Shown in pieces: positions 6,888 through 54,661 of a DNA stretch of 64,000 bases. The stretch is from Alphaproteobacteria bacterium (lineage in GTDB: Bacteria > Pseudomonadota > Alphaproteobacteria > Rs-D84): assembly GCA_017535105.1 (NCBI GenBank), contig JAFXUI010000001.1:11207-75206 (forward strand), read 5' to 3'. Both the position numbers and the translations under genes were made by a program. The number at the start of each line of letters is the position of its first letter. Position 1 is the stretch's first letter. The notes under the pieces were generated by a model. That model had not been told where the DNA came from, made no database searches, and saw only the letters and a list, made by a program, of their open reading frames with translations.

Positions 6888-6972
6888 AGGGGCAAAAACG
6901 GAATAACTTTCTCTTTTATTTTTGTTTTTTTATTGCTATACTGGCGACAACCAATAAACAAAGGAAGAAAAA

Positions 6973-7635
6973 ATGGTACAAAACAAAACTAAACAAGCAA
7001 AAACAAACTATGCAAAAATTGGTATCGTTGCGGCAATTGTCGTTGCGGTCGCGATTCTTGGTGTTGTCATTGTCAACGCGGTAAGTCATCACGGTGGTGT
7101 ATCCGTTGATCGTGCGGTTGAATCAATATCGTCCGATGCTGCAACTGGTGCAGATTTGCGTATCGCATTGGTTCGTATGGACGCAATTCAATCCGAAGCC
7201 AACGCATTACAAGATTTGCGTAAACAACGTGAATCGTATGAAAGCAAACTGCGTGATGAATTGACCGCCGAACAAAAGAAACTGGAAAAAGAAAAAGCAG
7301 AAATTGAAAAATCCCAAGACGTGTTGTCCCAGGACGCTTTGCAACGCCGTGTTGCCGACTATCAAAGACGCGTTACAAAATTGCAACGTGATTTGACAGA
7401 ACGTGCACAAAGCATTGAAACTTCTTATCAAAAGGCTTTACAAGATATCCAAGCAAAACATTTGGATCCGGTTATCGAAGGCATCATCGCGAAAAAGAAC
7501 TTGTCATTGGTAATTGACGGCCGTTTTGCACGTATGGGCGCAAATGCACAAAACTTGGACATCACAGATGACGTTGTTTCTGCGTTGAACAAGAAAGTGT
7601 CCAAGGTTAAAATGGAAAAACCAAAAGGTTTCTAA
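6973..7635 (+). CDS. skp: Periplasmic chaperone Skp (OmpH family)
   Basis: It has a signal or anchor helix and a coiled-coil OmpH-like body, and sits directly upstream of lpxD-fabZ, the conserved position. Confidence 0.8.
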   Translation: MVQNKTKQAKTNYAKIGIVAAIVVAVAILGVVIVNAVSHHGGVSVDRAVESISSDAATGADLRIALVRMDAIQSEANALQDLRKQRESYESKLRDELTAEQKKLEKEKAEIEKSQDVLSQDALQRRVADYQRRVTKLQRDLTERAQSIETSYQKALQDIQAKHLDPVIEGIIAKKNLSLVIDGRFARMGANAQNLDITDDVVSALNKKVSKVKMEKPKGF

Positions 7636-7736
7636 TCCTAAAACCTATAAACAACTTGAAAACGTCGCGATTGCGGCGTTTATCATTTGTGTAATATTTT
7701 CTTTTATTTTGATATTTCATCGTCTATAATTCCAGC

Positions 7737-8795
7737 ATGTTAAATATAATTAAATTTTTTATGGCACCCAAGGGGGCCAAGAAAACAGCCGGCCAATTGG
7801 CCGAGTTGTTTGGTTTGGAATTACGTGGCGATGCGAACGCAACCGTCAATGGTGTTGCGCCAATCGCAGATGCAAAACCGGGACAACTTGCGTTCTATTC
7901 CACTGAACAAAACAGTGCCGCGTTCAAGATATTACCACTATCGGTTTTGGAAAATACGCGCGCAACGGTGATTTTGGTTCAGCCGGAAATGGCGAAACAC
8001 GCTCCAAAGGGGGCGACACTGCTTATCACCGACACGCCACGCGGAAACATTGTAAAAATTTTGGGTGAAATATACCGTGAAAAACCACGCTTTGGCATCA
8101 GCAGTGATTCCCACGTTGAACGCGGTGTATTTTTCCGCAAAAAAAGCACCGTCTATGTTGGACACTTTGCGACAATTGAACGTGGCGCGGTTATTGAACC
8201 AGACGTCAAGATTTACCCAGGCGCATTTATCGGCCGCAACGTTACAATTGGACGCGGAACAATCGTCCAGACGGGCGCACATATTGAAAACGCAACAATT
8301 GGTGCCGATTGTGTAATTCACGCCGGCGCGGTTATTGGCAAGGACGGTTTTGGCTATACCCGCCAAGATGGTCATAACGTGTTTATTCCACACGTTGGTC
8401 GTGTTGTTTTGGGCGACCGCGTTTCTGTGGGCGCAAACACTTGTATCGACCGCGGTGTTATGACCGACACACGTGTTGGTGATGGAACAAAGATTGATAA
8501 CCTGTGCCAGATTGCACACGGTGTTGTAATCGGGTCCGAATGCTTCTTGGCATCGGGCGTGGGTCTGGCCGGCGGTACGGTAATTGGCGACCGCGCATTA
8601 TTGGGTGGCCACGTTGGCGTTGCAAATGGAATTCATATCGGTAATGATGCCGAAGTTGGCGCACAATCGGGCGTATTTCGTAATATCCCCGATGGCGATC
8701 GTCAAATGGGCTTTCCAGCGGTACCGGGGCTTGAATTCTGGCGTCAATATGCGTGGCTTAAAAACAATTCTAAAAAACCAGCAGGCAAAAAATGA
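7737..8795 (+). CDS. lpxD: UDP-3-O-acylglucosamine N-acyltransferase
   Basis: It has left-handed beta-helix hexapeptide repeats (GAFIGRNVTIGRGTIVQTGAHIENATIGADCVIHAGAVIG) and lies in the skp-lpxD-fabZ context. An alternative start is at 7761. Confidence 0.9.
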   Translation: MLNIIKFFMAPKGAKKTAGQLAELFGLELRGDANATVNGVAPIADAKPGQLAFYSTEQNSAAFKILPLSVLENTRATVILVQPEMAKHAPKGATLLITDTPRGNIVKILGEIYREKPRFGISSDSHVERGVFFRKKSTVYVGHFATIERGAVIEPDVKIYPGAFIGRNVTIGRGTIVQTGAHIENATIGADCVIHAGAVIGKDGFGYTRQDGHNVFIPHVGRVVLGDRVSVGANTCIDRGVMTDTRVGDGTKIDNLCQIAHGVVIGSECFLASGVGLAGGTVIGDRALLGGHVGVANGIHIGNDAEVGAQSGVFRNIPDGDRQMGFPAVPGLEFWRQYAWLKNNSKKPAGKK

Positions 8796-9277: not shown

Positions 9278-9354
9278 GGATGTTTAGCTCAGTTGGCTAG
9301 AGCATCTGCTTTACACGCAGAGGGTCAGGGGTTCGAGTCCCTTAACATCCACCA
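9278..9354 (+). tRNA. tRNA-Val (anticodon UAC)
   Basis: The cloverleaf was read by hand: acceptor GGATGTT/AACATCC, anticodon stem TCTGC/GCAGA with loop TTTACAC, T-loop TTCGAGT, and an encoded CCA. Confidence 0.88.
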
Positions 9355-9498
9355 TAAAAATTAAGCCACGTTTATCGTGGTTTTATTTTTATGCCTTGTG
9401 ATGTTTGGACGAGAACCCCCGGGTTCGACAATGAGTAAGCAAGAACAAGCAACGCGCAGTTCGAGCGCTAACGAATGCCGCGCAGGCGTTTAGCCGAG

Positions 9499-9519
9499 CG
9501 AGTCCCTTAACATCCACCA
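9499..9519 (+). repeat. 21 nt exact direct repeat of the tRNA-Val 3' end (CGAGTCCCTTAACATCCACCA); possible relic attachment site
   Basis: It is identical to 9334-9354, the T-arm half plus acceptor plus CCA, and lies 144 bp downstream of the tRNA. Confidence 0.6.
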
Positions 9520-9550
9520 TGAATTTAAAAACCGGCAAATGCCGGCTTTT

Positions 9551-10297
9551 TTATTTCGTATGTTGTTTATACCAATCCAACGCATTTTTCAGATAATCGC
9601 GCGCCAAATCCAGATTCATTGACCCAGTCGCGTCGCGCAAGCGTCCCTCGGCATCTATCCATGTATCATAATCTGCCGGGACAACATTTGCGATCTTGCC
9701 CAACGTGTCGCTAACTTTTGTTGGTGATATTCCCCCCGCATATCCAAACTGAATATCCTTATACACTGGCGCAAGTCGCTTTTTTGGTGCGATGCCAGCA
9801 CCATATGATTCATCAAACAACAAAGTGAACTGGGCGCCAGTAATTTTCAATTCTTCTATTTGGGGTTTTGTAATACTGTTATACGCCAATATAACCTCAT
9901 ATTTTTTCCACTTTGATATCAGGTCAGCCAATTTTCGCGCGTTAAATTCGTGTGCATAATCGCCAATATTTAATTGGATTCTGGAAATCAACGGCTGATC
10001 AGTATAAGAATGTTTTTGTTTCAGAAAATGTTTTATTTCGCCCGGTATATTGCCAGTACAAATTTCATCACACCATTTATAATTCACGTGTAATGCAAAG
10101 TTTAGTGGTTCTTTTGACTCTTTGGCATATTCAATCACCTTGTTAAACCAAGTGTACATTTCTTTACCTTTGGACATAGTTGATGGGAACACTTGAATTC
10201 CTAATTCTGCTAATGGAAACGATTTTAACAAACCAACTACTTTTACCGGTTCCAGATTTTCACGCGGATCCGAACATGTTATATACCGAAGTCTCAT
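9551..10297 (-). CDS. Conserved hypothetical protein, paralog A of the MRLRYITCSDPRE family (248 aa)
   Basis: It shares N-terminal MRLRYITCSDPRE and multiple blocks (HVNxxWCxEIC, FxLLxDxSxGxGxxP, GYxGGxSPxxV, IWIDAEGxLx, LARxY) with the ORF at 11349..12101. The synonymous codons differ, so conservation is at the protein level. There is a weak resemblance to the phosphate-binding (beta-alpha)8 barrel motif xxGGxSPxNV of TrpF-like or CutC-like enzymes. Confidence 0.6.
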   Translation of the reverse strand: MRLRYITCSDPRENLEPVKVVGLLKSFPLAELGIQVFPSTMSKGKEMYTWFNKVIEYAKESKEPLNFALHVNYKWCDEICTGNIPGEIKHFLKQKHSYTDQPLISRIQLNIGDYAHEFNARKLADLISKWKKYEVILAYNSITKPQIEELKITGAQFTLLFDESYGAGIAPKKRLAPVYKDIQFGYAGGISPTKVSDTLGKIANVVPADYDTWIDAEGRLRDATGSMNLDLARDYLKNALDWYKQHTK

Positions 10298-10433
10298 ATA
10301 CTATCCTTTATAATGTGTGTAAATATATCTATACAATTTTTCGTATACAAGTCAAGGTATTCCCACGATTTTTTCATATTGTATTTTATGTTTTTTTGGG
10401 CTAATCTTTTGCGCATACAGAAAAGGAGAAAAA

Positions 10434-11081
10434 ATGAAGAAAGTATTACCATTGTTTATGGCCGGTGCGATACTGGCGGGTTGCACAACAACAAACCCAT
10501 ACACCGGCGAACAACAAACATCTAAATTGGTTTGGGGCACGGCGATTGGTACCGCGGCGGGCGCAGCAACCGGCGCAATTGTATCCAAGGATAAGGGCAA
10601 AGGCGCATTGATTGGTGCGGCGGCTGGTGCGGCACTGGGCGGTGGCGTTGGTTATTATATGGATACCCAAGAGGCCGAATTACGTAAAGAACTTGAATCA
10701 ACCGGTGTTCGCGTTGCACGTGACGGCGACAATATCCGTTTAATTATGCCGGGCAATATTACATTCCAAACAGATTCAGCAGATATCAATTCTGGATTCT
10801 ATGCAACATTGAATTCGGTTGCCAAAGTATTCAAGAAATACAGCGATACAACCGTTATGGTGTTGGGCTATACCGACAGCACTGGCAGCGTAGAATACAA
10901 CCAAACATTGTCGCAAAAACGCGCACAATCGGTTGCATCATACCTTATTGGCCAGGGTGTAAAATCATCACGATTTGAGGTTATGGGCATGGGCATATCA
11001 AATCCAATTGCATCAAACAGCACCGCGGCGGGTCGTCAGCAAAATCGCCGTGTTGAAATCAAAATTATTCCAAACAAATAA
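10434..11081 (+). CDS. OmpA-family lipoprotein with an N-terminal glycine-zipper domain (YiaD-like)
   Basis: It has a lipoprotein signal (ILAGC) and a Gly/Ala zipper (GTAIGTAAGAATGAIV...GAAAGAALGGGVGYY), followed by an OmpA C-terminal domain (VMVLGYTDSTGS...NRRVEIKI). Confidence 0.8.
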   Translation: MKKVLPLFMAGAILAGCTTTNPYTGEQQTSKLVWGTAIGTAAGAATGAIVSKDKGKGALIGAAAGAALGGGVGYYMDTQEAELRKELESTGVRVARDGDNIRLIMPGNITFQTDSADINSGFYATLNSVAKVFKKYSDTTVMVLGYTDSTGSVEYNQTLSQKRAQSVASYLIGQGVKSSRFEVMGMGISNPIASNSTAAGRQQNRRVEIKIIPNK

Positions 11082-11124
11082 TGATGATAAAGAACAAAAA
11101 AACACCGGCAAACGCCGGTGTTTT

Positions 11125-11370
11125 TTATCTCTGTTTTACAAAATCACGAAACATAATATTTTTTGTATTTGCTTTCGCATCAGCAAGCATATTGTTATTT
11201 TCTTTTTTCTCTATAATATCTGGTTCTGCTTTTGGTTTACGACGGTACAACAAACAACAACCCAACGCTATGGCCCCCAATGCCAACCCAGAGGCAATCA
11301 CTAATGTTCTTATAATTTCTTTGGAGTATTTATTCATTTTGTTTTCCTTTATCTTTGTCTGTTTATCCAT
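11125..11370 (-). CDS. Small hypothetical membrane protein (81 aa)
   Basis: It is a Lys-rich peptide with one predicted transmembrane helix (LVIASGLALGAIALGCCLLY). It may be spurious. Confidence 0.3.
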   Translation of the reverse strand: MDKQTKIKENKMNKYSKEIIRTLVIASGLALGAIALGCCLLYRRKPKAEPDIIEKKENNNMLADAKANTKNIMFRDFVKQR

Positions 11371-12101
11371 TTGTCTGCTTTCATAATATATTGACGTGCA
11401 AGTTCACAATCAAATTTGTCGTTGGTTTTCAATTTCCCTTCGGCATCAATCCAAATGTCTTCACGATTCTTTGGCACGACCGATGAAATCTTTCTTAAAT
11501 TTTTCACAACATTTTTCGGTGACATTCCGCCCGAATATCCCATCGGCACGCTGTCATATACTGGCTTGTTCCATGTGCCTGGTGTCAAACCACGTCCACC
11601 AGACGCATCATAAAGCAACGAAAACTTTGCGCCCATTTCATATAATACCCATGCGGCATTTTTTGTTCGGTCATTATACTGCAAAATAAATTCATGGTCG
11701 TCATTGTGCAGGAATAATTTTTTTACCGCATCATAATTTATATCACGAACGGCGGTGTTTGACATATTTAACTGCCAGCGTTTAACCAATGGTGAAAAGC
11801 CCAAGTTTTTACGATAAAGCCCAAAGAATTCCCGTAATTCCATTGGAATTTCACCGGTACGACAAATTTCTTCGCACCATTCTTGGTTTACGTGCACCGC
11901 CAAATTTATGTCATGGGCATCACGTACACAATAACGGCACAATTCATGAAACCATTCATTACGTGGCATACCCGGGGACGCCTTGGACGGATGCATTTGC
12001 ACCGCAATTTCTGCACGTGGCGAACTTTCTGCCAATTTTACAATATCATGAAAATCATTAAATTCACGCGGGTCAGAACAAGTGATGTATCTCAGTCGCA
12101 T
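11349..12101 (-). CDS. Conserved hypothetical protein, paralog B of the MRLRYITCSDPRE family (250 aa)
   Basis: The evidence is the same as for paralog A. Its start overlaps the 3' end of rlmN by 29 nt. Confidence 0.6.
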   Translation of the reverse strand: MRLRYITCSDPREFNDFHDIVKLAESSPRAEIAVQMHPSKASPGMPRNEWFHELCRYCVRDAHDINLAVHVNQEWCEEICRTGEIPMELREFFGLYRKNLGFSPLVKRWQLNMSNTAVRDINYDAVKKLFLHNDDHEFILQYNDRTKNAAWVLYEMGAKFSLLYDASGGRGLTPGTWNKPVYDSVPMGYSGGMSPKNVVKNLRKISSVVPKNREDIWIDAEGKLKTNDKFDCELARQYIMKADKWINRQR

Positions 12102-13203
12102 TTTTTTCTTCCTTTTTATGTTTTAAACGCAACTGTCCACATGCAGAACCGATGTCGGTTCCCCTCTCTCGCCGTATGCGTGTATGAATACCGTTTTTAA
12201 TCAAAATGTCTTGAAACCGATGAACCGCGTTGCCCGATATAGATGCAAAATCACGTTCATCAACCGTATTCCATGGGATTAAGTTTACCATACAATTTTT
12301 ACCATGCAATAACTTTGATAATTCTTCGGCATATTCGGGCGTCGCATTATAAAGCACCACGTCGCCATTTTCGTCTTTTTTGCCAAGAAGTATATATTCG
12401 ATCATCAACTGGCGATTATGTAGGTTTGTAAACTCGTCCGCCGTCGCCAACACCTCCGATAATTTATATTTATTATTTATCGGCATAATTTGGCTGCGTA
12501 ATTCGTCTGTTGGTGCGTGCAGAGATATTGCCAGATTTATCGGACGGCCCCACTCTATCAATCGTTTAATTCCCGGCACAATACCACATGTCGACAGTGT
12601 TAAGCGCCGCCAGCCAATACCCATATCAGTGTTTGCGCGTTCCATAAAACCGATTACGTTTTCGGTATTCTGTAATGGTTCACCCGTCCCCATAATTACA
12701 ATATGCGAAACATCACCATTATTTGCATCGCCATTTGGGTGAATAGATTTTTCATTTGTAGAATTGCGTAATGTCCATTGTGCAATTAAAATCTGGGCGA
12801 ACATTTCGTTCACGGTTAAATTACGTTTTAATCCCAACAGTGTACTTGCGCAAAATTTACACCCCATCGCACAGCCAGCCTGGGAACTGACACAGACACT
12901 GTTGCCATAACTGGTGCGCATTAAAACGCATTCTATTTGTTCCGCGTCATTTAATTCCAATAAAAATTTGGTTGTTTGACCGTCACTTGATTCCAGTTTT
13001 TTCGTAACACGTAATGGTAACGTTTGTGCCGTTTCGTCCAAGCGTTTACGCAACGCCGCCGGCAAATTTTTCATTGATTCAAAATCTGGTGCACCACGAT
13101 TTAACCAATCGCGAATTTGTTTTGCGCGAAAACGTGGTTCGCCCAAATCTACGACAAACTTTTCCAATTCAGAATCATTAAAATCAAACAGTATTGGTTT
13201 CAT
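12073..13203 (-). CDS. rlmN: 23S rRNA m2A2503 / tRNA m2A37 methyltransferase, radical SAM
   Basis: It has the CxxxCxxC radical-SAM cluster (GCAMGCKFCAS) and the conserved RlmN N-terminus (FRAKQIRDWL). Confidence 0.92.
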   Translation of the reverse strand: MKPILFDFNDSELEKFVVDLGEPRFRAKQIRDWLNRGAPDFESMKNLPAALRKRLDETAQTLPLRVTKKLESSDGQTTKFLLELNDAEQIECVLMRTSYGNSVCVSSQAGCAMGCKFCASTLLGLKRNLTVNEMFAQILIAQWTLRNSTNEKSIHPNGDANNGDVSHIVIMGTGEPLQNTENVIGFMERANTDMGIGWRRLTLSTCGIVPGIKRLIEWGRPINLAISLHAPTDELRSQIMPINNKYKLSEVLATADEFTNLHNRQLMIEYILLGKKDENGDVVLYNATPEYAEELSKLLHGKNCMVNLIPWNTVDERDFASISGNAVHRFQDILIKNGIHTRIRRERGTDIGSACGQLRLKHKKEEKNATEIHHLF

Positions 13204-14021
13204 AATTTATATCTGTCATCGTTTATAACAACAACCGCTTTGCGCCGTAATTGTTTTAATTGTTGTTCGGCAACAAACATCGCCTGTTTATACATCGCGT
13301 TTTGTTTTATAACTTCGTCCAGTTTTCCATATTCGGCTGTTTTTTTCGTACTGCATACCAACAGCACCGAATCATCAACACGTGGCGACCAGGTAAGATT
13401 TGGCAACCCCGTCACACGTTCACGAATATCACGCGACAATTCATATTGCGCCGCCGTAAACTTTTGTGGCGCGCCACCCAAATCTTCTGCCATTTTCATT
13501 GCAGCATCACAACTTTTTGGTTTGGTCAGTTTTGCCGCGACATCGGCCGGTATATCCAACAATCGCACAATTGTCATTTCAATTGGCAAACCCTGTTCAC
13601 GTGCCAAATCATTTTTCATATCGTTAATGTCGTCTTTGCTGACATCAATTGTCGGCATAATTGTTCGCGTGATTATAACCTGCCATGCGATTTCAGCACG
13701 AATTGCCGATATTGCCATTTCACGTTCCATCGCCGTCAAGTCCGACATATTCATACGCTTTAATTCACTTGCCGCATCCGCGTCTGTTGGTTTAACGCCA
13801 AAGTTTGCCGCATAGTCCAACTTTACCGTATCATCGATAATATTTTGCAACGCAATACGGCGATTGTCTGTTGATGTTTTTCCTTGGCGCGCCATAAGTT
13901 TTGTGCGTGCAGTAATATCAGCATCTGTGATTGGTTTGCCACCAACCGTTGCAACAACACTTGTCGCAAACGCGGGCGATGCAAACATACACAACAAAGC
14001 AACAACCTTTAACAACTTCAT
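13200..14021 (-). CDS. SurA N-terminal-domain periplasmic chaperone-like protein (no obvious parvulin domain)
   Basis: It has a signal peptide and sits immediately downstream of lptD, the conserved lptD-surA position. It is only 273 aa. Confidence 0.6.
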   Translation of the reverse strand: MKLLKVVALLCMFASPAFATSVVATVGGKPITDADITARTKLMARQGKTSTDNRRIALQNIIDDTVKLDYAANFGVKPTDADAASELKRMNMSDLTAMEREMAISAIRAEIAWQVIITRTIMPTIDVSKDDINDMKNDLAREQGLPIEMTIVRLLDIPADVAAKLTKPKSCDAAMKMAEDLGGAPQKFTAAQYELSRDIRERVTGLPNLTWSPRVDDSVLLVCSTKKTAEYGKLDEVIKQNAMYKQAMFVAEQQLKQLRRKAVVVINDDRYKL

Positions 14022-21243: not shown

Positions 21244-21272
21244 AAAAAACGCCCGTTTGGGCGTTTTTTTAA
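21244..21272. terminator. Bidirectional rho-independent terminator (A-tract, GC hairpin, T-tract)
   Basis: aaaaaaaacgcccgtttgggcgttttttt lies between convergent infB and the virD4-like gene. Confidence 0.7.
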
Positions 21273-23524
21273 TCTATAAATTCTTTCAATTCACCGGTGG
21301 CGGGGTTATATACACGTGGTTTTCCCTTGTACCCCATAATCGCGTGATGTGATGGAATTAAAAACTCTGGCAATGGTGACGATTCCCCCATTTGAACCTT
21401 TGCGTTTAATGCTTTCTGTACTGGTGTTTTATCCAAGAAATATCTTTCTTGGGACGCTTCAATCGGTCGATTGTAATACCCTTGGTATATAATTATTTGT
21501 TTACTATCTTCCAGTTTCATAATATCCATTGGCGAATACAATAATTCTGGTGATTTTTCTTCTTTATCTTTACCGTCTGCACCCTTAACCGTTTTAAGTT
21601 TTATTTTTTCGCCCATCATATCCGAAAAACGTTTTGCGGTATCTGGGTCGTTTTGACGCATAACAATTTTTGCCGCCGTTGTTGATATAATGGTATCGGC
21701 CGCATCTGCGCCATACTTTTCGCGAATCTGGTGGATATCTTGACCGATGATAAGGTATGAAATCTTTTGACCACGTCCAAGGTCCGGTCCCTGAATCACG
21801 GCTTGCAATTTCATCATCTTTGGCATTTCGTCCAAAACAAACAATACTGGGTATGGTCCCATTTTTTTACCGTCGTGTTCAGAATCTGGCGCATTTGCCA
21901 ACAAGAAATTCGACATCAATTCAATAAAGATACCAGTAATTGGGTTTAACGCCTCAGCATCAACCATGTTGATAGACAGGTACACCGAAACAGGTTTAAT
22001 TTTGCCATCGCGTGGGTCAACCATTCCACGCAGGTCGCTGAAATGAAAATCAGAATGACTTGTACGATTACGCACCGCGGCATTACGGAAAATCGACAAG
22101 CCCGCCATAATGGTTGATAAAATTGAACCACGTTCTTTATCTGGTGTATTCGCAAGTTGCGTCAGTTCCAAAATCGCACGATGCGAATATGCATATCGGC
22201 GTGCTTCATCAACCGCACCCATAAATACATCTTTTAATGGGTCCGCCATCATAACCATTTGGTCACCGGCACGGCGGCGTTCTTCGATATCTTGGGCAAC
22301 CGCCAATTCAGCCGCATTTAACCAGTCCAAAATCATTGACAATGATGCTTCTTTACCCACCCAAGCGTCTGGTATGTGTTCCCATGTACCAACATGAACA
22401 TAGTTTGATTCATTTAATTCGCCACGTTGTAACATTGCCACCGCCGCATATGCATTTGGATCTTCGGTCATAGACAGGTAATAATCGGTCAAAACAGCTG
22501 CATCATCTGAATTAAACTCACCTGATTTAAAACGTGCATAGAAATAATCATCGGCCTTGGCACGTTCAATCTTTGACACAATAAAACTGATAAAACCAGA
22601 CAGCCCCGCACGACCAGTAATTCCCCAGTGTGGATCCTTTGGCGTTTCTTGGACTAAAACATTACAAATCGTGTCTATATACAAATCGCGCTGTTCTGGA
22701 TTAAATGGTACGTGTTCTGGGGACAACGGATTCCAAGATGGATAGTAAATTCCGCGTTCAGGATCGTCTTGACCCGCCCAGTTCATAATAAACACCGGAC
22801 CAACAGTTGAACGATATGCTGATGTTTTTTGTTTCAATTCTGGTTTCGGGTCATTGATAATCATTGAAACATTGTCACATTCAACAATAGTCGGGACAAC
22901 AACACCCGCTGTTTTACCAGTTCCCGGGGGCGCAACGCATAACGCAGACAAAGATTCGTCAAACATCAACGGCATCATTTTGCCCTTGTTCTTGAAATAC
23001 CCCAAAACCATCATAAAGCCATTGAATAAGCCTTCTTTGTTTTTATGGTCTTGCGCCATTTCTCTGATATCTGCGGCGGTTGCCTTGCGCGAAGATTTTT
23101 CGTCCAACTTATCTTTTTCATTTGGGTTAAATTCGGAAACAAGCGTCTTGTCCGCCATAATGTAATACGCGATTATAGGAAGCAATGGCGCCATACACGC
23201 CATATCGGTGTACATAACACAGCGCACAACCCACGATGGAATTTCCGCAATTACTGACATACCAAGCGTTGATAACGCATTATGTAAATAAACACTTGTC
23301 CACACGGAACTTGCCGGTGACCAACCATACCGCCATACGTGTTCCAGTATGAACGACAGGCCAAACGCAAGCGCACAAACAACCCATACAGCCAAGACCC
23401 AGCGCAACTCCCAAAAAACACGCGCCATTGGGATACGTTGGTGTTCCTTGTAAGACGCCGAATTAAAAATATTCAGACCCTTACCTTTGCCACCTGCGGA
23501 TAAAATCTTGAACTGCCCTGCCAT
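21269..23524 (-). CDS. virD4: Type IV secretion/conjugation coupling protein (VirD4/TraG/TraD family ATPase)
   Basis: It is 751 aa with an N-terminal membrane region, a Walker A motif (VAPPGTGKTAG) and a Walker B-like motif (VLFVLDEMPKM), and has the overall length and architecture of a type IV coupling protein. Confidence 0.72.
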   Translation of the reverse strand: MAGQFKILSAGGKGKGLNIFNSASYKEHQRIPMARVFWELRWVLAVWVVCALAFGLSFILEHVWRYGWSPASSVWTSVYLHNALSTLGMSVIAEIPSWVVRCVMYTDMACMAPLLPIIAYYIMADKTLVSEFNPNEKDKLDEKSSRKATAADIREMAQDHKNKEGLFNGFMMVLGYFKNKGKMMPLMFDESLSALCVAPPGTGKTAGVVVPTIVECDNVSMIINDPKPELKQKTSAYRSTVGPVFIMNWAGQDDPERGIYYPSWNPLSPEHVPFNPEQRDLYIDTICNVLVQETPKDPHWGITGRAGLSGFISFIVSKIERAKADDYFYARFKSGEFNSDDAAVLTDYYLSMTEDPNAYAAVAMLQRGELNESNYVHVGTWEHIPDAWVGKEASLSMILDWLNAAELAVAQDIEERRRAGDQMVMMADPLKDVFMGAVDEARRYAYSHRAILELTQLANTPDKERGSILSTIMAGLSIFRNAAVRNRTSHSDFHFSDLRGMVDPRDGKIKPVSVYLSINMVDAEALNPITGIFIELMSNFLLANAPDSEHDGKKMGPYPVLFVLDEMPKMMKLQAVIQGPDLGRGQKISYLIIGQDIHQIREKYGADAADTIISTTAAKIVMRQNDPDTAKRFSDMMGEKIKLKTVKGADGKDKEEKSPELLYSPMDIMKLEDSKQIIIYQGYYNRPIEASQERYFLDKTPVQKALNAKVQMGESSPLPEFLIPSHHAIMGYKGKPRVYNPATGELKEFID

Positions 23525-24955: not shown

Positions 24956-25948
24956 ATGAAAAAACAAACCTCTATCAAAAAGGTAAAACGCGCAAACACC
25001 AATGATTCTGTGGCTTTGCACGCGACACCAAAACAAAAAACATCGTACAATCCATGGTCGATGTCGATATATGTTTATTGGTTTATCATCTTGTTTTTCA
25101 TTGCTGCAACGTTCTATATCCTTGGACGCAGTCATGGTGTGTTGGATCATCGCGTTCCATTAAACGATAATGCCGTTGTCACAGAAGAAGTTTTAATGCA
25201 GGCCCCAGATTATTATGAAAGTGGCAAGGCAAAATTAATTGCTGGTGAAATCGAAGACGCAATTGTTGATTTAACGGCCGCAATTGATTCGGGTGAAGCA
25301 ACCGATGAATTGTTCATCTTGCGTGGTGAAGCATACATGCAATCCGCAAGTTTTGGTAATGCGTTAAATGATTTCAATATGGCAATTGATATGAACCCAT
25401 CAAGTTCTGTTGCATATTATGATCGTGCATTATTGAACACACGTCTTGATGATTACAATGCCGCACTGAACGATATAAATAATGCGTTGGCGGTACGTGC
25501 AACAAATGACCAAGATGTTTTACAATTGCGTGATTTGTACGCAAAACGTGGTCAGTTGAATTTGTGGTTAAAGAATTGGGAGGGCGCAATTGCCGACTAT
25601 ACCAATTCATTGGCCCGCCCAGACGGTGTTGTAAATCCATCTGTATATGCCGAACGTGCCGAAGCATACACCGCAATTGGTGATTACGCGGCCGCAATAA
25701 ATGATTATTCTGCGGCGGTACGTGTTATATCAGAACAAATCCAGGGCGCAGAAACATCAGCAGAACGTGAATTAATGTCATCAAACGCGATGTCATATTT
25801 CGAAAAGTCAGCAGCATTGAATTTGCAACTTGGAAATATGGAAGCGTCACGCAGTGATTTAGAATCTGCGTTAACAATCGCAGCGGCATTAAACGATTCT
25901 GAAAGTGTTGAACGCTTACAGGGTTTAATTGCTGATATGAACCAATAA
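24956..25948 (+). CDS. Membrane-anchored tetratricopeptide-repeat protein
   Basis: It has one transmembrane helix followed by multiple TPR-like repeats (AxxxYxxxG periodicity). The ATG at 24956 has a strong Shine-Dalgarno (GGAAGGGAGAG). Confidence 0.55.
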   Translation: MKKQTSIKKVKRANTNDSVALHATPKQKTSYNPWSMSIYVYWFIILFFIAATFYILGRSHGVLDHRVPLNDNAVVTEEVLMQAPDYYESGKAKLIAGEIEDAIVDLTAAIDSGEATDELFILRGEAYMQSASFGNALNDFNMAIDMNPSSSVAYYDRALLNTRLDDYNAALNDINNALAVRATNDQDVLQLRDLYAKRGQLNLWLKNWEGAIADYTNSLARPDGVVNPSVYAERAEAYTAIGDYAAAINDYSAAVRVISEQIQGAETSAERELMSSNAMSYFEKSAALNLQLGNMEASRSDLESALTIAAALNDSESVERLQGLIADMNQ

Positions 25949-25962
25949 ATGTTTATTGAATA

Positions 25963-25992
25963 AAAAACGCCGGCAGATGCCGGTGTTTTTTT
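25963..25992. terminator. Palindromic bidirectional terminator (ACCGGCA family)
   Basis: aaaaaacgccggcagatgccggtgttttttt lies between convergent genes. Confidence 0.7.
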
Positions 25993-28653: not shown

Positions 28654-29388
28654 ATGCAATTAAACAAAATCGCATTTTTGATGGTGGGATTGGGGCTGCT
28701 TGCGGCATGCGACAGCCATGACCCTATTTTACCTGGGACACGTACTTCTATATTTGATACAAGCACCGTTCGCACCGCAGACACAGCGATAAAATCATTA
28801 CCCGATACCGCATATGAAATGGCGGAAGTAAATTGCCCATATACCCAAGATTCCACAAACACAATCTGGAACGGGGAACGGAAAATCTTTACAGGCTTTC
28901 CAACAACAAATTCGGTTAAAAACGATGCAAAACCCGTTTGCAGTGGCAAATTCGTTTATGCGGGACTAACAACAGGTGAACTTATTAAAATCAATCCAAA
29001 CAGCCGTCAAATCGTCTGGATTGCAGACATTTATCGCCCCAGCAATATGACCGGTGGCGCATCCGTCTTGGACATTGTTGCACCGATTGTAATACGGGGG
29101 TCGTATGTTTATGCTGGCGGTTTGGGTGATGCATTTTGCAAAATAAATGCGGGTACAGGCGCGAAAAAATGGTGCGTGGATATCGGTACCGCAAAACCAT
29201 TTATTATCGCTGGGGACGTGATTTTTGTGGTCGCAACCGACGGTAAATTATACGCCCTGCGCGACAGTGATGGTGCAGCATATTGGAGTGCGGAAATTGA
29301 AAAACAAAAAGCCCCAAAATACGAAAACGGAACAATTACCGTCGGCCACGAAAAGTTTGACGGTGTGTCAGGCAAAAAAATCAAATAA
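28654..29388 (+). CDS. bamB: PQQ-like beta-propeller lipoprotein, BamB-like (short, 244 aa)
   Basis: It has a lipoprotein signal (LLAAC) and PQQ-repeat-like blades (VYAGGL...GKLYALRDSDGAAYW), and follows the yfgM-like gene. It is about 60% of canonical BamB length. Confidence 0.55.
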   Translation: MQLNKIAFLMVGLGLLAACDSHDPILPGTRTSIFDTSTVRTADTAIKSLPDTAYEMAEVNCPYTQDSTNTIWNGERKIFTGFPTTNSVKNDAKPVCSGKFVYAGLTTGELIKINPNSRQIVWIADIYRPSNMTGGASVLDIVAPIVIRGSYVYAGGLGDAFCKINAGTGAKKWCVDIGTAKPFIIAGDVIFVVATDGKLYALRDSDGAAYWSAEIEKQKAPKYENGTITVGHEKFDGVSGKKIK

Positions 29389-29415
29389 AAACACCGGCAA
29401 ATGCCGGTATTTTTT
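29387..29415. terminator. Palindromic bidirectional terminator (ACCGGCA family)
   Basis: aaaaacaccggcaaatgccggtatttttt. Confidence 0.7.
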
Positions 29416-30649
29416 ATTCGTATCTTAAACTGTCAATCGGGTTTAATTTGGCGGCCTTGAATGCAGGCACAACCCCCGATGCCAATCCCACAACAATCGC
29501 AACCGCAACCGACAACACAATCGGCCACAACGAAAACGGCACATTATAATGCAATATAAGTCGCCCCACCCCCTGGGCCAGTCCTACGCCCAACGCCAAA
29601 CCAATCATTGAACCAATAAATGATATTAAAACAGATTCGGACAAAAACTGAATTATTATCTGTTTTTCTTTGGCGCCAATCGCTTTGCGGATTCCTATTT
29701 CACGTGTGCGTTCCGCAACAGATACCAACATCATATTCATAATACCAATTGCCCCAACCAAAAGCGACACCGCCGCAATCGCAATAAGCAACATTTTCAT
29801 ATATCCCGTCACCACCGACATTGTTTCCATTATTTGTTTCATATCCATAATTTGGAAATCGTCTTCATCATTGGGTTTAAGTCTGTGTCTGGTGCGCAAC
29901 AATAATCTTATTTCATCTATTACAAATTCATTGTCTGCGTCTGGATATAATTTCAGAACAATCATTTGCACCGAATTTGGAAAGCGACTGCCCTGGATAC
30001 GTTTTCGCAGTGTTGTTATCGGAATCAAAATCATATTATCCATTGACCCCATTGCAGAATCTCCCTTGGCACGCGTCACACCAATAACCGTCAGCGGTAT
30101 ATTTTGCACACGAATTATTTCACCAATCGGGTTTTCGGGCATTTCTAATTCTGTCAAAACTTCGGGACCAATTACTGCGTATGTTGATGCGTTGCGTACG
30201 GCAAACTGATTGAAAAACGTGCCCATATCTAATTCAACATTTTGCACAGTTGTATATTCGGGATACACCCCCATAAGTGATGTTGTATGATTTTTGTTTC
30301 CATATATCGCCTGGGCGCCGGTGGTTTGGACGGGGCTTGCCGCCATAACCCCCGGCAGTTGTGCAATTGTTTCTGCATCCATGGTGGTCAGTGTTTGCAG
30401 GTTTCCCGTACGCACACCGCCCATACGTGCAACACCAGCACGTATCATAATCGTACTTGTTCCCAGTGCTGAAAACTGATTGCTTATTTCGTTTTCAACT
30501 GTTTCACCAACGGCAACCATTATGACAACCGCCATAACACCAATGACGATACCCAGTACCGTTAAAAAAGAACGAATTTTATTTCCACTTATTGAAACCC
30601 AAGATTCTTTCAATATATCGCCAAATGTCATATTACCCACCCACAACAT
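29414..30649 (-). CDS. ABC transporter permease, FtsX/MacB family (permease only, no ATPase domain)
   Basis: It is 411 aa with an N-terminal transmembrane helix, a MacB-like periplasmic domain and a C-terminal FtsX three-helix bundle. It ends an operon with an MFP gene and tolC. Confidence 0.8.
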   Translation of the reverse strand: MLWVGNMTFGDILKESWVSISGNKIRSFLTVLGIVIGVMAVVIMVAVGETVENEISNQFSALGTSTIMIRAGVARMGGVRTGNLQTLTTMDAETIAQLPGVMAASPVQTTGAQAIYGNKNHTTSLMGVYPEYTTVQNVELDMGTFFNQFAVRNASTYAVIGPEVLTELEMPENPIGEIIRVQNIPLTVIGVTRAKGDSAMGSMDNMILIPITTLRKRIQGSRFPNSVQMIVLKLYPDADNEFVIDEIRLLLRTRHRLKPNDEDDFQIMDMKQIMETMSVVTGYMKMLLIAIAAVSLLVGAIGIMNMMLVSVAERTREIGIRKAIGAKEKQIIIQFLSESVLISFIGSMIGLALGVGLAQGVGRLILHYNVPFSLWPIVLSVAVAIVVGLASGVVPAFKAAKLNPIDSLRYE

Positions 30650-34519: not shown

Positions 34520-34987
34520 ATGGCAAAGATAAATTACCAGGAATTATTAGACAACGCATTAAAATCGGTCGTCAAAGACGCATTGGTGTATGCCCAGGTA
34601 AATGGGTTGGGCGATGGGACACACTTTTTTATAACATTCAAGACACGCGACCCAGGCGTTGTTTTACCAGACTTTTTGCGTATGCGCTATCCGGACGTAA
34701 TGACCATTGTTTTACAGTATTCGTATAACAACTTGAACGTATCGGACCGCGAATTTGGTGTACAATTGACATTTGACGGACGTCCGTTCTTTATCCGCGT
34801 ACCATTTTCCGCGTTGGTTGAGTTCAAAGATCCATCAACAGACTTTATGTTATCATTTCATCATAAATCTGCACCGGCGGCGGCCGATAACGATATGGAA
34901 TTACCGCTGGACGAAAAACCGGGCACGGTTCCAGACGACAAACGCATCGTATCCCTGGACGAATTTCGGAAAAAGAAAAACGTATAA
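34520..34987 (+). CDS. sspB: ClpXP adaptor SspB-like protein (alphaproteobacterial type)
   Basis: The GDGTHFFITFKTRDPGVVLPDFLRMRYPDVMTIVLQY core resembles the SspB substrate-binding domain. It has an acidic linker and a C-terminal basic ClpX-binding-like tail (SLDEFRKKKNV). Confidence 0.55.
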   Translation: MAKINYQELLDNALKSVVKDALVYAQVNGLGDGTHFFITFKTRDPGVVLPDFLRMRYPDVMTIVLQYSYNNLNVSDREFGVQLTFDGRPFFIRVPFSALVEFKDPSTDFMLSFHHKSAPAAADNDMELPLDEKPGTVPDDKRIVSLDEFRKKKNV

Positions 34988-35015
34988 AAAAACACTGGCA
35001 ATCGCCGGTATTTTT
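34986..35015. terminator. Palindromic bidirectional terminator (ACCGGCA family variant)
   Basis: aaaaaaacactggcaatcgccggtattttt. Confidence 0.65.
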
Positions 35016-35877
35016 ATAACTTCATTTTACTGCACATATCACGCAACACTGGCACATCAACACCGATGCGTGCGGCACGCGCGATTAAACCGCGTAATGC
35101 GGAAATCCCCTCAACCGTACCAATTGCTTCTTCGCCACGTGCGATTGCCATACCGCCGGAAAAATTGCGGCTTGTTTCCGATGTCGCAGACAGGAATAAA
35201 TCACCAATGCCGCACAGACCCAAAAACGTTTCAGATTTTGCGCCCGATGCACAACCCATTTTAACAATTTCGCCCCATGTGCGTGTGAATATCATTGCGC
35301 GTTCGTTTTCACCCGCCGCTGCAACCAAGTTATATCCACATATCAACGCAACCGCGTTTTTACCAACGCCACAATATTCGGCACCGATAACATCATCACT
35401 GTCATCAAGATATAATTTATTCAAGATTTCATGCCCCACCGCGCGCGCTTTTGCGTTCGCCGCCAATGTAGAGCCCGTTGGAACACCACGCGCAACTTCG
35501 GCCGCGAACTGCGGGCCCGACAGCACACCATAATCGCTACATGCCGGTATTACGTCTTGTAAAATCTCGGACATAAATGCACATGTTTCTGGTTCGGCAC
35601 CCTTGGTACAAATGATTATCGGCTGACCATTATAAAACGTACGCGCATTCGTCATTGTGTCACGGAAAAATGCCGCCGGTGTCACAACCAACCACGCGTC
35701 CATGTCAACCATTTCTGCCATATCACGCGTTATGCGCAAATTCCCCGGCATATCAACACCATCAAACGATTTATATTCACCATCAAAGGACCATAATACA
35801 ACGTCCGAACCGCCACGCGCGGCGACAATACCCAATGCGGTTCCCCATGCGCCCGCACCAATTACACCAACTTTCAT
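35014..35877 (-). CDS. gpsA: NAD(P)H-dependent glycerol-3-phosphate dehydrogenase
   Basis: It has the Rossmann N-terminus MKVGVIGAGAWGTALG and is conserved across its length. At 287 aa it is short. Confidence 0.9.
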   Translation of the reverse strand: MKVGVIGAGAWGTALGIVAARGGSDVVLWSFDGEYKSFDGVDMPGNLRITRDMAEMVDMDAWLVVTPAAFFRDTMTNARTFYNGQPIIICTKGAEPETCAFMSEILQDVIPACSDYGVLSGPQFAAEVARGVPTGSTLAANAKARAVGHEILNKLYLDDSDDVIGAEYCGVGKNAVALICGYNLVAAAGENERAMIFTRTWGEIVKMGCASGAKSETFLGLCGIGDLFLSATSETSRNFSGGMAIARGEEAIGTVEGISALRGLIARAARIGVDVPVLRDMCSKMKL

Positions 35878-39027: not shown

Positions 39028-39906
39028 ATGGCAAAATTTGGTCTTGGGCGTGGTCTTGACGATTTAGAAAAAGAAATTGGCGATGTGCCAAATATGTCTA
39101 TATTGACGGGCGCCGAACGTGTCGTTGTTCGTAAAATACCACTTTCACAAATTGGCGCGAACCCAAATCAGCCACGAAAAACTTTTTCAGATGATGAATT
39201 GTCTGATTTGGCGGCATCAATTCGCGAAAAGGGTGTGATTACACCAATTCTTTTGCGCAGTGTGGCCGGCAAGCCTTATATGTATGAAATTGTTGCTGGT
39301 GAACGCCGTTTTCGCGCAAGTAAATTAGCGGGCAAAACAGATATACCGGCAATAATAAAAACAATAACAAACGAAAACGCAATGGAAATTGCGTTGATTG
39401 AAAACGTTCAGCGCGAAAACCTGAATCCAATAGAAGAAGCAAACGCATATAAAAACCTTATGGAACAATGTCATTATGAATTGGCCGATGTTGTGCGTTT
39501 AATTGGTAAATCGGAAAGTTATATTCGTAATTCAATTCGTTTAACAGAATTACCAGCGTCTGTTCAAAAAATGGTCCAAGATGGCGATATCTCTGCTTCA
39601 CATGCGCGTACAATTGTTGTTGCCGATGATCCAGAAAAGTTGGCACACGAAATAAAAGATAAAAAGTTATCTGTGGCCGCAACAGATAAATTGGTACATA
39701 CAACCAAACGTTCTGCAAAAAGTCGGACATACGTGTCACACACAATCGATTCAAAAACATTGAAATCAATGGAGCAGGGCATATCCACCGCAATAGGTGC
39801 GCCCGTAAAAATTATCGAAAAGCGGGGTGGGGCGGGCCAGATAGTATTATCATTCGCATCGCGTAATGAACTGCATGAACTGGTTAAAAAACTTATCCAA
39901 AAGTAA
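39028..39906 (+). CDS. parB: Chromosome partitioning protein ParB (Spo0J)
   Basis: It has the ParB box (GERRFRAS) and a helix-turn-helix (IAxxxGKSESYIRNSIRL), and lies immediately downstream of parA. Confidence 0.93.
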   Translation: MAKFGLGRGLDDLEKEIGDVPNMSILTGAERVVVRKIPLSQIGANPNQPRKTFSDDELSDLAASIREKGVITPILLRSVAGKPYMYEIVAGERRFRASKLAGKTDIPAIIKTITNENAMEIALIENVQRENLNPIEEANAYKNLMEQCHYELADVVRLIGKSESYIRNSIRLTELPASVQKMVQDGDISASHARTIVVADDPEKLAHEIKDKKLSVAATDKLVHTTKRSAKSRTYVSHTIDSKTLKSMEQGISTAIGAPVKIIEKRGGAGQIVLSFASRNELHELVKKLIQK

Positions 39907-39920
39907 GCATAAAAAATACA

Positions 39921-39951
39921 AAAAAAACACCGGCAAAAGCCGGTGTTTTTA
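39921..39951. terminator. Palindromic bidirectional terminator (ACCGGCA family)
   Basis: aaaaaaaacaccggcaaaagccggtgttttt. Confidence 0.7.
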
Positions 39952-39964
39952 TACAATTAAATAA

Positions 39965-53407: not shown

Positions 53408-54484
<1,077 letters not shown>

Positions 54485-54530: not shown

Positions 54531-54607
54531 GGGTGGTTAGCTCAGTTGGCTAGAGCGTCACGTTGACATCGTGGAGGTCGTTGGTTCGAGCCCAATACCA
54601 CCCACCA
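54531..54607 (+). tRNA. tRNA-Val (anticodon GAC)
   Basis: The cloverleaf was read by hand: acceptor GGGTGGT/ACCACCC, anticodon loop TTGACAT, and an encoded CCA. Confidence 0.88.
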
Positions 54608-54615
54608 GATTTTAT

Positions 54616-54646
54616 AAAAAAACACCGGCATTTGCCGGCATTTTTT
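54616..54646. terminator. Palindromic bidirectional terminator (ACCGGCA family)
   Basis: aaaaaaacaccggcatttgccggcatttttt. Confidence 0.7.
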
Positions 54647-54661
54647 ATTTATATTTTTATA

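Follow-up and report, generated by a model that had tools for sequence, protein, structure and literature searches.

Two paralogs in an Rs-D84/Candidatus Enterousia symbiont from an unnamed TrpF-like barrel protein family also common in large phages

The window analysed here is a stretch of 64,000 nt from an Alphaproteobacteria bacterium of Rs-D84 (assembly GCA_017535105.1, contig JAFXUI010000001.1, positions 11,207-75,206 of the forward strand). The host clade, Rs-D84/Candidatus Enterousia, comprises gut symbionts with genomes smaller than 1 Mbp, from which amino-acid biosynthesis is missing (PMC12306168). Ruminant and human guts frequently harbour these bacteria. A first-pass annotation had singled out two same-strand ORFs of 248 and 250 aa flanking an OmpA lipoprotein gene, with a tiny membrane ORF and a tRNA-Val repeat nearby. 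All of these features are present, both ORFs (pA and pB) lying on the minus strand, and the locus is organised as follows in window coordinates.

9278..9354, tRNA-Val(tac), whose 3' half recurs in degenerate form at 9481-9523
9532..9545, GC-rich hairpin directly 3' of pA, candidate terminator, detected by the scan on the plus strand only, with a T tail
9551..10297, minus strand, pA, 248 aa, monocistronic, predicted TrpF-like barrel paralog of pB, pA-type clade
10434..11081, plus strand, yiaD-type glycine-zipper/OmpA lipoprotein (NF053611, E 6.8e-82)
11097..11126, both strands, bidirectional intrinsic terminator with a 13-bp stem (terminator scan)
11125..11370, minus strand, small single-TM ORF between pB and the terminator, 81 aa from its first start
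11349..12101, minus strand, pB, predicted TrpF-like (βα)8-barrel protein of 250 aa, last enzyme gene of the lptFG-lptD-273aa-rlmN operon
12073..13203, minus strand, rlmN, radical-SAM rRNA/tRNA methyltransferase (PF21016, E 1.6e-14; PF04055), upstream operon partner
12108..12113, minus strand, Shine-Dalgarno sequence AGGAAG for pB, read from the sequence within the rlmN coding region and separated by 6 nt from the ATG at 12101

The last 29 nt of rlmN overlap pB, an overlap already noticed in the first-pass annotation, and in one relative the rlmN stop and the barrel-gene start overlap by 4 nt. The bidirectional terminator ends yiaD in one direction and, in the other, the unit made up of rlmN, pB and the small ORF; its hairpin and that at 9532-9545 belong to one repeated hairpin family. 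Since the latter is palindromic and preceded by a run of A on the plus strand, it is also a candidate for minus-strand use by pA. The small ORF is called as a 70-aa gene in the public assemblies L001-L004, is 62% identical in the nearest species representative (L013) and occurs only among close relatives; family searches returned no match for it. An island integrated at tRNA-Val and carrying pA was rejected because the two tRNA-derived repeats, 165 nt apart, do not enclose pA. ORF 53731..54477, next to the second tRNA-Val, was likewise discarded as a third paralog, being a low-complexity antisense ORF within 53423..54484. The idea that the shared C-terminal '[KR]QR' tail is a secretion signal was dropped because a QR end occurs in just 1 of the 67 likely genes of the window.

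pA and pB are old paralogs, both under strong purifying selection (dN/dS ~0.1). Their paralogy was recognised from the start, at an identity put at 35-40%; the exact figure is slightly higher, 41% (100/246 residues, E 9e-59, BLASTP). The N-terminal 13 residues, MRLRYITCSDPRE, are identical in both, yet 8 of the 13 codons differ, by 9 nucleotides in all and always synonymously, which excludes recent gene conversion. The conserved blocks reported for the pair correspond to invariant columns of a 47-sequence alignment. Using the Nei-Gojobori method, dN/dS was 0.096 for pA against a 91% identical orthologue, and 0.077 and 0.131 for pB against orthologues of 88% and 87% identity, compared with 0.05-0.14 for nearby housekeeping genes. 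Each paralog forms a separate orthologue group, and none of the relatives appears pseudogenised. The age first proposed for the copies is supported. The two types also differ by fixed residues, namely P/A141, Y168 and M/R225 in the pA type and Q141, G168 and K225 in the pB type.

Comparison of 80 species-representative genomes revealed a conserved unit, lptFG-lptD-273aa-rlmN-barrel gene, in at least 77 of them, and the barrel gene directly follows rlmN in at least 77 as well. The same genomes carry 1, 2 or 3 barrel copies, in tandem or split. It is this rlmN-barrel unit, and not the initially proposed module with the OmpA lipoprotein, that is conserved. The lipoprotein YiaD is an incidental bystander and no functional partner of the barrel genes, because its gene adjoins even single-copy barrel genes in many relatives and is absent from the site in others; in L013 the site lacks both pA and yiaD. 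No rlmN was found near pA, near the L014 copy or near any distant family member. The barrel gene is the most diverged member of the operon in 69 of 73 Enterousia loci. One allele replacement, with 53% identity in the barrel gene versus 88-98% between near-identical backbones, and one relocated copy were also detected in the clade.

AF2 predicts confident (βα)8 barrels for both proteins (pLDDT 94-95.5; for pA, pLDDT 95.5 and pTM 0.92), which agrees with the barrel suggested by the first-pass annotation. Neither protein matches any Pfam, NCBIfam, PHROG or PADLOC family, and PADLOC and PHROGs gave zero matches for pA, pB and ten distant members, unrelated C-terminal extensions aside; the earlier failure to place the pair in a known family thus holds. 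Their own family, which is unnamed, comprises 3,425 clusters at 50% identity. Neither pA alone nor the A1 profile retrieved sequence relatives in the PDB, and the BFVD viral structures yielded nothing close. Foldseek on pA ranked the generic barrels of pyruvate kinase, TenI and TPI above TrpF, with TM ~0.5. At the fold level, nearest structural neighbours from the ribulose-phosphate-binding barrel superfamily and the predicted C-terminal phosphate motif place the family in that group. CutC, to which a likeness had also been suspected, was neither a sequence match nor the nearest structure. The PRAI profile gave no match to pA or pB at E up to 1. Sub-threshold scores were restricted to distant relatives, at 14.8-21.6 bits against Pfam PF00697 (cut-off 22.7) and at most 29.4 bits against the NCBIfam PRAI models, PRK01222 models included (cut-offs 172-259), while hhalign of the family with TrpF reached a probability of only 12-29%. 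A confident match to PRA isomerase or CutC, which could have made the pair ordinary metabolic genes, is therefore absent. KDPG/KHG aldolase (PF01081) scored 16.4 bits against a cut-off of 27.8, over residues 159-202 only. TrpF is the sole detectable relative of the family, at scores that always lie far below family cut-offs. We found no description of a phage or orphan TrpF-like protein in the literature, and the family is without name, structure or published description.

In the family alignment each of the eight strands has invariant polar residues at its C-terminal end; their putative placement in the pocket follows from strand positions. The β7 block GY(S/A)GG-SP-N, in which a TrpF-type phosphate-binding motif had been perceived, does align with LSGGLNPEN of tmTrpF, and the β8 block WID-E aligns with VDVSS. 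The family-invariant D165 falls opposite Asp126 of tmTrpF in weak alignments (hhalign/hmmsearch: E 6e-4, probability 29%; E 0.26). Cys8 hardly varies within the Enterousia-type and intermediate clades, and the phage-type branch has I, F, L or V at this position. It is a possible counterpart of the TrpF base Cys7, β1 lying outside the TrpF alignments obtained. The strands carry no family-wide invariant lysine, a point against a class I aldolase or transaldolase.

The family is mostly phage-borne, which the first-pass annotation had not foreseen any more than its large size; a divergent branch is abundant in phages, including genomes of 635-735 kb. Scanning with the A3 alignment detected 100 relatives in IMG/VR, many on contigs of 50-500 kb. 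Three phage genomes of 635-735 kb and one isolated cyanophage carry the gene, and some family members reside in prophage or jumbo-phage contexts. Microcystis phage Mwe-JY13 is a culturable carrier. Phage neighbours are heterogeneous replication and recombination genes; no dominant conserved neighbour emerged from 80 viral loci, the largest neighbour cluster covering 6 of them. Some phage and other contexts include tRNA-related genes (PolyA_pol/CCA-type enzyme, TyrRS, Sua5). Operon partners that hint at a function are confined to subgroups sharing 25-30% identity with pA/pB, where distant members cluster with a URC1-like cyclohydrolase and a UPRTase, or with Nampt. Nampt, NMNAT-Nudix and Acb2/Tad1-hairpin genes occur together as neighbours, one member shows a weak C-terminal Acb2/Tad1-hairpin match (22 bits versus the Pfam cut-off of 27), and NADAR is also found nearby. 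Nampt adjacency concerns 2 of ~81 viral loci, L133 being the one further case. None of URC1, UPRTase, Nampt, NMNAT and NADAR is encoded in the window or in the 80 Enterousia-type loci. A general association with these genes was rejected, a single extra Nampt (L133) having turned up in the 80 viral loci and none of these genes in the Enterousia loci or the window. The phage NAD+ pathway NARP3, which consists of PnuC and NadR, is unrelated to the barrel family.

We give about an even chance to the proposal that pA and pB work in the cytoplasm as acid/base enzymes on a salvaged phosphorylated metabolite, probably of the 5-phosphoribosyl type, and differ in specificity. A terminal phosphate ester would be held by the β7 GY-GG-SP-N and β8 W-D-E blocks, while Asp165 on β6 (aligned with the TrpF general acid), the acidic E13 after β1 and His70 could provide acid/base chemistry. 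The reaction would be an isomerisation or a cleavage at C1/C2 of the phosphorylated sugar moiety. In a host of less than 1 Mbp devoid of amino-acid and nucleotide biosynthesis, the salvaged metabolite that they process would most likely be of the 5-phosphoribosyl type or a related sugar phosphate, and the differences fixed at positions 141, 168, 225 and 37 suggest that the two specificities are related yet distinct. More speculatively, and with a rather low probability, the family may represent an unrecognised but widespread enzyme of phages and symbionts whose target is an N-ribosyl-5-phosphate or an ADP-ribose/NAD-derived metabolite and which exploits or subverts the partner's nucleotide pool. 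Such an enzyme could be, for instance, an Amadori-type isomerase or lyase that degrades or recycles a nucleotide-derived compound of the host and whose 1-3 diverged, exchangeable copies serve different target metabolites, and its users would be parasites of cells, i.e., large phages and obligate Rs-D84 symbionts.

The abundance in IMG/VR, in the 635-735 kb phages, in the cyanophage and in prophage or jumbo-phage contexts also suits a conflict-type enzyme. This would be a phage accessory gene altering NAD+, ADP-ribose or UMP-type metabolites during infection, e.g., to counter host immunity or re-route salvage, and its Enterousia copies would have been domesticated and used against or on the partner cell. 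The Nampt, NMNAT-Nudix, Acb2/Tad1 and NADAR neighbourhoods, the marked divergence of the barrel gene within its operon, its variable copy number, the allele replacement and the relocation are consistent with such a role, which we nevertheless regard as rather unlikely. The close pairs bear no sign of diversifying selection at dN/dS ~0.1, the gene keeps a stable place in a housekeeping envelope/rRNA operon, PADLOC and PHROG yielded no match, Nampt adjacency is rare among the viral loci and the Acb2/Tad1 match remains under its cut-off. It is unlikely, too, that the barrels are sugar-phosphate isomerases, epimerases or aldolases that replace a missing glycolysis or pentose-phosphate step of Rs-D84, such as the absent transaldolase: besides the missing strand lysine, no RPE-type or metal-ligand motif was recognised, and such a role leaves both the carriage by large phages and the 1-3 diverged copies in a genome below 1 Mbp unexplained.

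The adjacency to rlmN, with its overlap of 4-29 nt and an internal Shine-Dalgarno sequence, together with the tRNA-related genes of some phage and other contexts, could make the barrel a helper of RlmN in RNA modification, with rRNA/tRNA or a modified-nucleotide by-product as its target; such a role would account for the translational coupling of rlmN and pB. We consider this very unlikely, as the adjacency is limited to this clade and does not extend to pA, the L014 copy or distant members, and a polynucleotide would be a less fitting ligand for the β7/β8 block than a small phosphate ester. Moreover, the operon of this compact genome includes the unrelated envelope genes lptFG and lptD, so that co-transcription of rlmN and pB says little about a common function. 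Some automatic JGI annotations name PRA isomerase, yet an ordinary divergent TrpF of tryptophan biosynthesis is extremely improbable. Besides the low profile scores, the host clade lacks amino-acid biosynthesis, which speaks against TrpF, no trp gene lies beside any of ~170 loci, and 1-3 paralogs per genome and abundance in phages do not fit a role in the tryptophan pathway.

The family matters beyond this locus. It is large and unnamed and recurs in jumbo phages and megaphages, and bacteria stripped of nearly all biosynthesis still maintain one to three copies of it under selection; a gene that persists in such circumstances is usually indispensable for living in dependence on a host. Knowing the substrate would close a gap in what is reconstructed of Rs-D84/Enterousia metabolism and explain what a common 'hypothetical protein' of large phages does, and it might extend the short list of reactions catalysed by TrpF/HisA-like barrels. 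Should the proteins prove to be plain sugar-phosphate isomerases, the annotation would be useful yet modest.

Among known systems, the likeness to TrpF/PRAI (PF00697; PDB 1lbm/1nsj, 1v5x, 4wui, 4aaj) consists of the barrel and the predicted phosphate site to which the β7 GG block and the β8 loop contribute. The pA/pB family nonetheless differs from TrpF by being ~45 residues longer, by an identity of 10-14% to TrpF structures, by a possible counterpart of the catalytic β1 Cys that is not conserved across the family and by the extra invariant polar residues E31, H70, R108/Q110/N112, Y189, W217 and E221. It also differs in context, being common in phages and found outside trp operons in a host without a Trp pathway. 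The ProFAR isomerases HisA/PriA possess two phosphate sites and an internal two-fold symmetry, and show no sequence match to pA/pB. RPE, HPS/KGPDC, OMPDC, IGPS, TrpA, TenI/ThiE and KDPG aldolase gave no significant sequence score, and the Schiff-base Lys, the DxKxxD motif and the RPE metal ligands of ribulose-phosphate barrels are absent from pA/pB. URC clusters (URC1, GTP-cyclohydrolase-II-like, and URC6, a UPRTase) host a distant subgroup of the family (P0365 and P0366, on two rearranged contigs), only 25-29% identical to pA/pB. To our knowledge the barrel is no known URC component, URC4 being another protein. The URC pathway yields an N-ribosyl compound, ribosylurea, via uncharacterised steps (PMC7530994), and this product is chemically analogous to the substrate class of TrpF.

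pA and pB, the two barrel genes of the window, lie on the same strand on either side of a lipoprotein gene and close to a tRNA gene. The first-pass annotation had described this layout, including the small membrane ORF, the tRNA-Val repeat and the overlap of pB with rlmN, and all of its elements were recovered; the list below adds a hairpin and a terminator:

9278..9354: tRNA-Val(tac)
9532-9545: GC-rich hairpin, directly 3' of pA
9551..10297 (-): pA, ORF of 248 aa
10434..11081 (+): yiaD, YiaD-family glycine-zipper/OmpA lipoprotein (NF053611, E 7e-82), between pA and pB
between pA and pB: small ORF with a single TM segment
11097-11126 (both strands): strong bidirectional terminator, closing the rlmN-pB-small ORF unit
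11349..12101 (-): pB, ORF of 250 aa

The last 29 nt of rlmN are shared with the 5' end of pB, whose Shine-Dalgarno sequence (AGGAAG, 6 nt upstream of the ATG) also lies within rlmN. The two proteins align over their full length with 41% identity (E 9e-59). Their first 13 residues, MRLRYITCSDPRE, are the same, as had been claimed, and carry nine synonymous differences across eight codons, which rules out a recent duplication or gene conversion. Purifying selection on both copies was likewise confirmed by Nei-Gojobori dN/dS ratios of 0.096 for pA (against its 91% identical orthologue in L174, the closest genome) and of 0.077 and 0.131 for pB (against orthologues in the relatives L013, 88%, and L014, 87%); rlmN, lptD, yiaD and the 273-aa gene have values of 0.05-0.14 in the same comparisons.

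A near-identical terminator hairpin, AAAAACACCGGCAAAnGCCGGTGTTTTT, recurs in the window, where it closes seven or more transcription units, frequently in both directions (9522-9564, 11076-11137, 25941-25990, 29365-29426, 34966-35027, 39901-39962 and 54596-54657); one sequence family seems common to the terminators of this small genome. The two tRNA-Val repeats are 165 nt apart, with pA outside them, the second being a degenerate copy of the tRNA 3' half (9481-9523, 43 nt, 79% identity). An element of about 127 nt beside the tRNA (9397-9523) starts with GATGTTTGG and finishes with GAGTCCCTTAACATCCACCA, the acceptor-stem/T-arm ends of the neighbouring tRNA-Val, around unrelated sequence. Neither ARAGORN nor Rfam made a call on it, and it may represent either a duplicate of the tRNA that has decayed or an integration scar at tRNA-Val. 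An ORF beside the window's other tRNA-Val gene (53731-54477, -, 248 aa), considered as a third paralog for its size and position, was rejected as a low-complexity frame antisense inside 53423..54484 (+).

A scan of species-representative genomes identified 139 relatives. The best 80 of these are all alphaproteobacterial MAGs from gut or rumen; many bear the name Candidatus Enterousia, and one is a closed chromosome of 958,618 bp. In at least 77 of these 80 loci the barrel gene or genes stand directly behind rlmN, in the array lptF/G-lptD-273aa-rlmN-barrel; two of the three apparent exceptions are cut by contig ends. Of the five operon genes, the barrel gene has diverged most in 69 of 73 loci, its median identity to the window being 48% versus 61% for lptD, 66% for lptFG, 67% for the 273-aa gene and 80% for rlmN. 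The 273-aa gene (13200-14021, -) has no Pfam match and keeps its position between lptD and rlmN throughout the clade; other Proteobacteria have surA at this position, in an lptD-surA operon.

Barrel copies vary in number, and most of the 80 loci hold a single one. Tandem rlmN-pA-type-pB-type arrangements occur in six loci (L024, L028, L030, L035, L040, L042), rlmN-pB-pA in two (L061, L085) and rlmN-pB-pA followed by an oppositely oriented yiaD and a third type in four (L054, L062, L068, L074), while L034 has three barrel genes in tandem. In a neighbour-joining tree, 67 copies form a pB-type supergroup, 33 a pA-type supergroup and 4 the divergent third type. Since the types are split and the sole copy behind rlmN may belong to either the pA or the pB type, an old duplication followed by differential loss is implied. 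The proposal of a conserved module with the OmpA lipoprotein did not hold: yiaD frequently adjoins single-copy loci, and both pA and yiaD are missing at this site in L013, the nearest species representative, so the bracketing layout is one local variant. In L174, whose flanking genes are 88-98% identical to those of the window, the pB slot (6898-7644) is occupied by a gene of another subclade with 53% identity to pB, whereas the more distant L013 retains 88%; this indicates at least one allele replacement, by recombination or transfer within Enterousia. In the L014 lineage a pB-type gene (7989-8741, 87% identical) has been relocated away from rlmN, among genes for a peroxiredoxin, an AccD/AccA fusion and an AddA-like helicase.

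AlphaFold2 models of pA (pLDDT 95.5, pTM 0.92) and pB (pLDDT 94.3, pTM 0.91) each alternate eight β-strands with helices and show a barrel fold with high confidence. The invariant residues, retained in pA-type and pB-type proteins alike, form a polar constellation at or just past the C-terminal end of each of the eight strands, the usual active-site position of TIM barrels: T7-C8-S9-D10..R12-E13, E31..Q35, H70.N72, R108.Q110.N112, Y142-N143, D165.S167.G169.G171, G188-Y189.G191-G192.S194 and W217.D219.E221. Elsewhere the types differ by fixed substitutions, with position 141 Q in 67/67 pB-type and P in 30/33 pA-type copies, 168 G versus Y, 225 K versus M/R, and 37 H in the pB type and variable in the pA type, a pattern that fits two related but distinct specificities. 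Window pA departs from two nearly invariant sites, by W177R (common to 2/33 pA-type copies) and N197K (in no other of the 33).

Neither protein has an above-threshold match in Pfam, NCBIfam, PHROGs or PADLOC, nor a sequence relative in the PDB. Below threshold, pA matches KDPG aldolase over β6-β7 (16 bits) and the remaining traces are noise. Close homologues (378 for pB, 127 for pA) are all annotated as hypothetical except for a few automatic JGI labels of phosphoribosylanthranilate isomerase (PRAI, TrpF). An exhaustive profile search over 1.84 billion cluster representatives returned 3,425 matches at E <= 1e-3, 2,045 at E <= 1e-10 and only 69 at E <= 1e-30, so that the window proteins make up just a small clade within a family that is very large and has no name. 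More distant members bear the β1 motif VTITGADD versus ITCSDPRE in the window type, with TCSGANE and SCAGADD as intermediates, and profiles of the two branches are unambiguously homologous by hhalign (probability 100%, E 2e-43). Family-wide, E31, H70, R108, Q110, N112, D165, S167, G169, G171, G188-Y189, G191-G192, N197 and D219 are conserved in at least 91%, E221 in 84% and W217 in 76%. About 6 of 150 listed representatives have C-terminal extensions of 60-90 residues.

The TGADD branch is abundant on viral contigs (100 IMG/VR relatives, many on contigs of 50-500 kb). Members occur unannotated in three uncultured phages of 635-735 kb (LR745206.1, LR756501.1, LR756503.1) and, as a hypothetical protein within a YqaJ/RecT/ParB module, in the isolated Microcystis phage Mwe-JY13. 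Bacterial members lie in prophage-like or jumbo-phage-like regions or alone in chromosomes. Minimal symbionts and giant phages both keep the family. Viral neighbourhoods are heterogeneous, and two contexts are suggestive of function:

L008 977-3575 and L177 4155-8504: URC1-like/barrel/UPRTase clusters
L012 4213-7717, phage-like contig: co-directional NMNAT-Nudix fusion, Acb2/Tad1-hairpin protein, Nampt and barrel

The barrel proteins of the former (P0366, P0365; 25-29% identical to pA/pB) are clustered with a URC1-type GTP-cyclohydrolase-II-like gene and UPRTase. The three shared genes are 79%, 72% and 59% identical in rearranged order, and one cluster also holds Nudix and His_Phos_1 phosphatase genes. 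URC1 and URC6 take uracil through uncharacterised steps to ribosylurea and 3-hydroxypropionate (PMC7530994). The present clusters may serve bacterial uracil/UMP degradation, with the barrel acting on a phosphoribosyl-urea-like intermediate. In the latter, the barrel gene (P0175) overlaps the Nampt 3' end by 4 nt, next to the NMNAT-Nudix fusion and the Acb2/Tad1-hairpin protein; another member, P0210, joins a barrel to a weak Acb2/Tad1-hairpin-like C-terminus. Nampt adjacency has only one further case among 80 viral loci. Partners in both contexts use PRPP or process ribosyl-phosphate compounds; none of these partner types was found in the window or near the barrel genes of the 80 Enterousia loci.

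Rs-D84/Enterousia genomes are mostly below 1 Mbp, lack amino-acid, nucleotide and lipid synthesis pathways, and probably belong to obligate symbionts or parasites (PMC12306168). A 751-aa VirD4/TraG-type type IV secretion coupling protein is encoded at 21269-23524 (-), with T4SS-DNA_transf, TrwB_AAD_bind and TraG-D_C domains from the annotation of an identical gene in L002; it bears on the proposed cell-associated lifestyle.

We propose, at roughly even odds, that the barrel proteins are acid/base enzymes acting on a phosphorylated, salvaged metabolite. A phosphate monoester would dock at β7/β8. D165, which would correspond to the general acid of TrpF, would cooperate with H70 and with the acidic residue that follows β1 (E13, replaced by D in phage-type proteins). 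The chemistry would take place on the sugar part of a metabolite drawn from the partner cell, either of 5-phosphoribosyl type or a related sugar phosphate, and pA and pB would each have a substrate of their own. A conflict enzyme derived from phages, where relatives abound, is an unlikely alternative. In this clade glycolysis is incomplete and the non-oxidative pentose-phosphate pathway lacks transaldolase (PMC12306168), and we hold a filler of such a sugar-phosphate gap to be quite improbable. An RNA-modification helper linked to RlmN, behind whose gene most Enterousia copies stand, is very doubtful.

That these are true TrpF enzymes is scarcely credible, given a clade devoid of amino-acid synthesis and no trp gene next to the barrel gene in any locus examined. 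PRAI is the sole named family matched by distant members, always in register on β6-β8, with scores of at most 29 bits versus cut-offs of 172-259. The phage-type profile aligned weakly by hhalign (E 6e-4, probability 29%) with T. maritima TrpF, in a sequence identical to that of PDB entries 1lbm/1nsj; D-x-S-G-G-x-G...W falls opposite D126...GGSGKTFDW, GYAGGLSPEN opposite LSGGLNPEN and WIDxE opposite VDVSS. Among PDB sequences, this profile matches P. furiosus TrpF best (E 0.26). A Foldseek search with the model of pA found nothing close (TM ~0.5, generic barrels on top, TrpF at rank 44). The earlier view of an undescribed, TrpF-like family stands; only at the family level is it new, fold and superfamily both being well known. 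Its β7/β8 block shares sequence homology with the phosphate site of TrpF, and it constitutes a separate family within or beside the ribulose-phosphate-binding barrels, of which TrpF is the nearest named relative.
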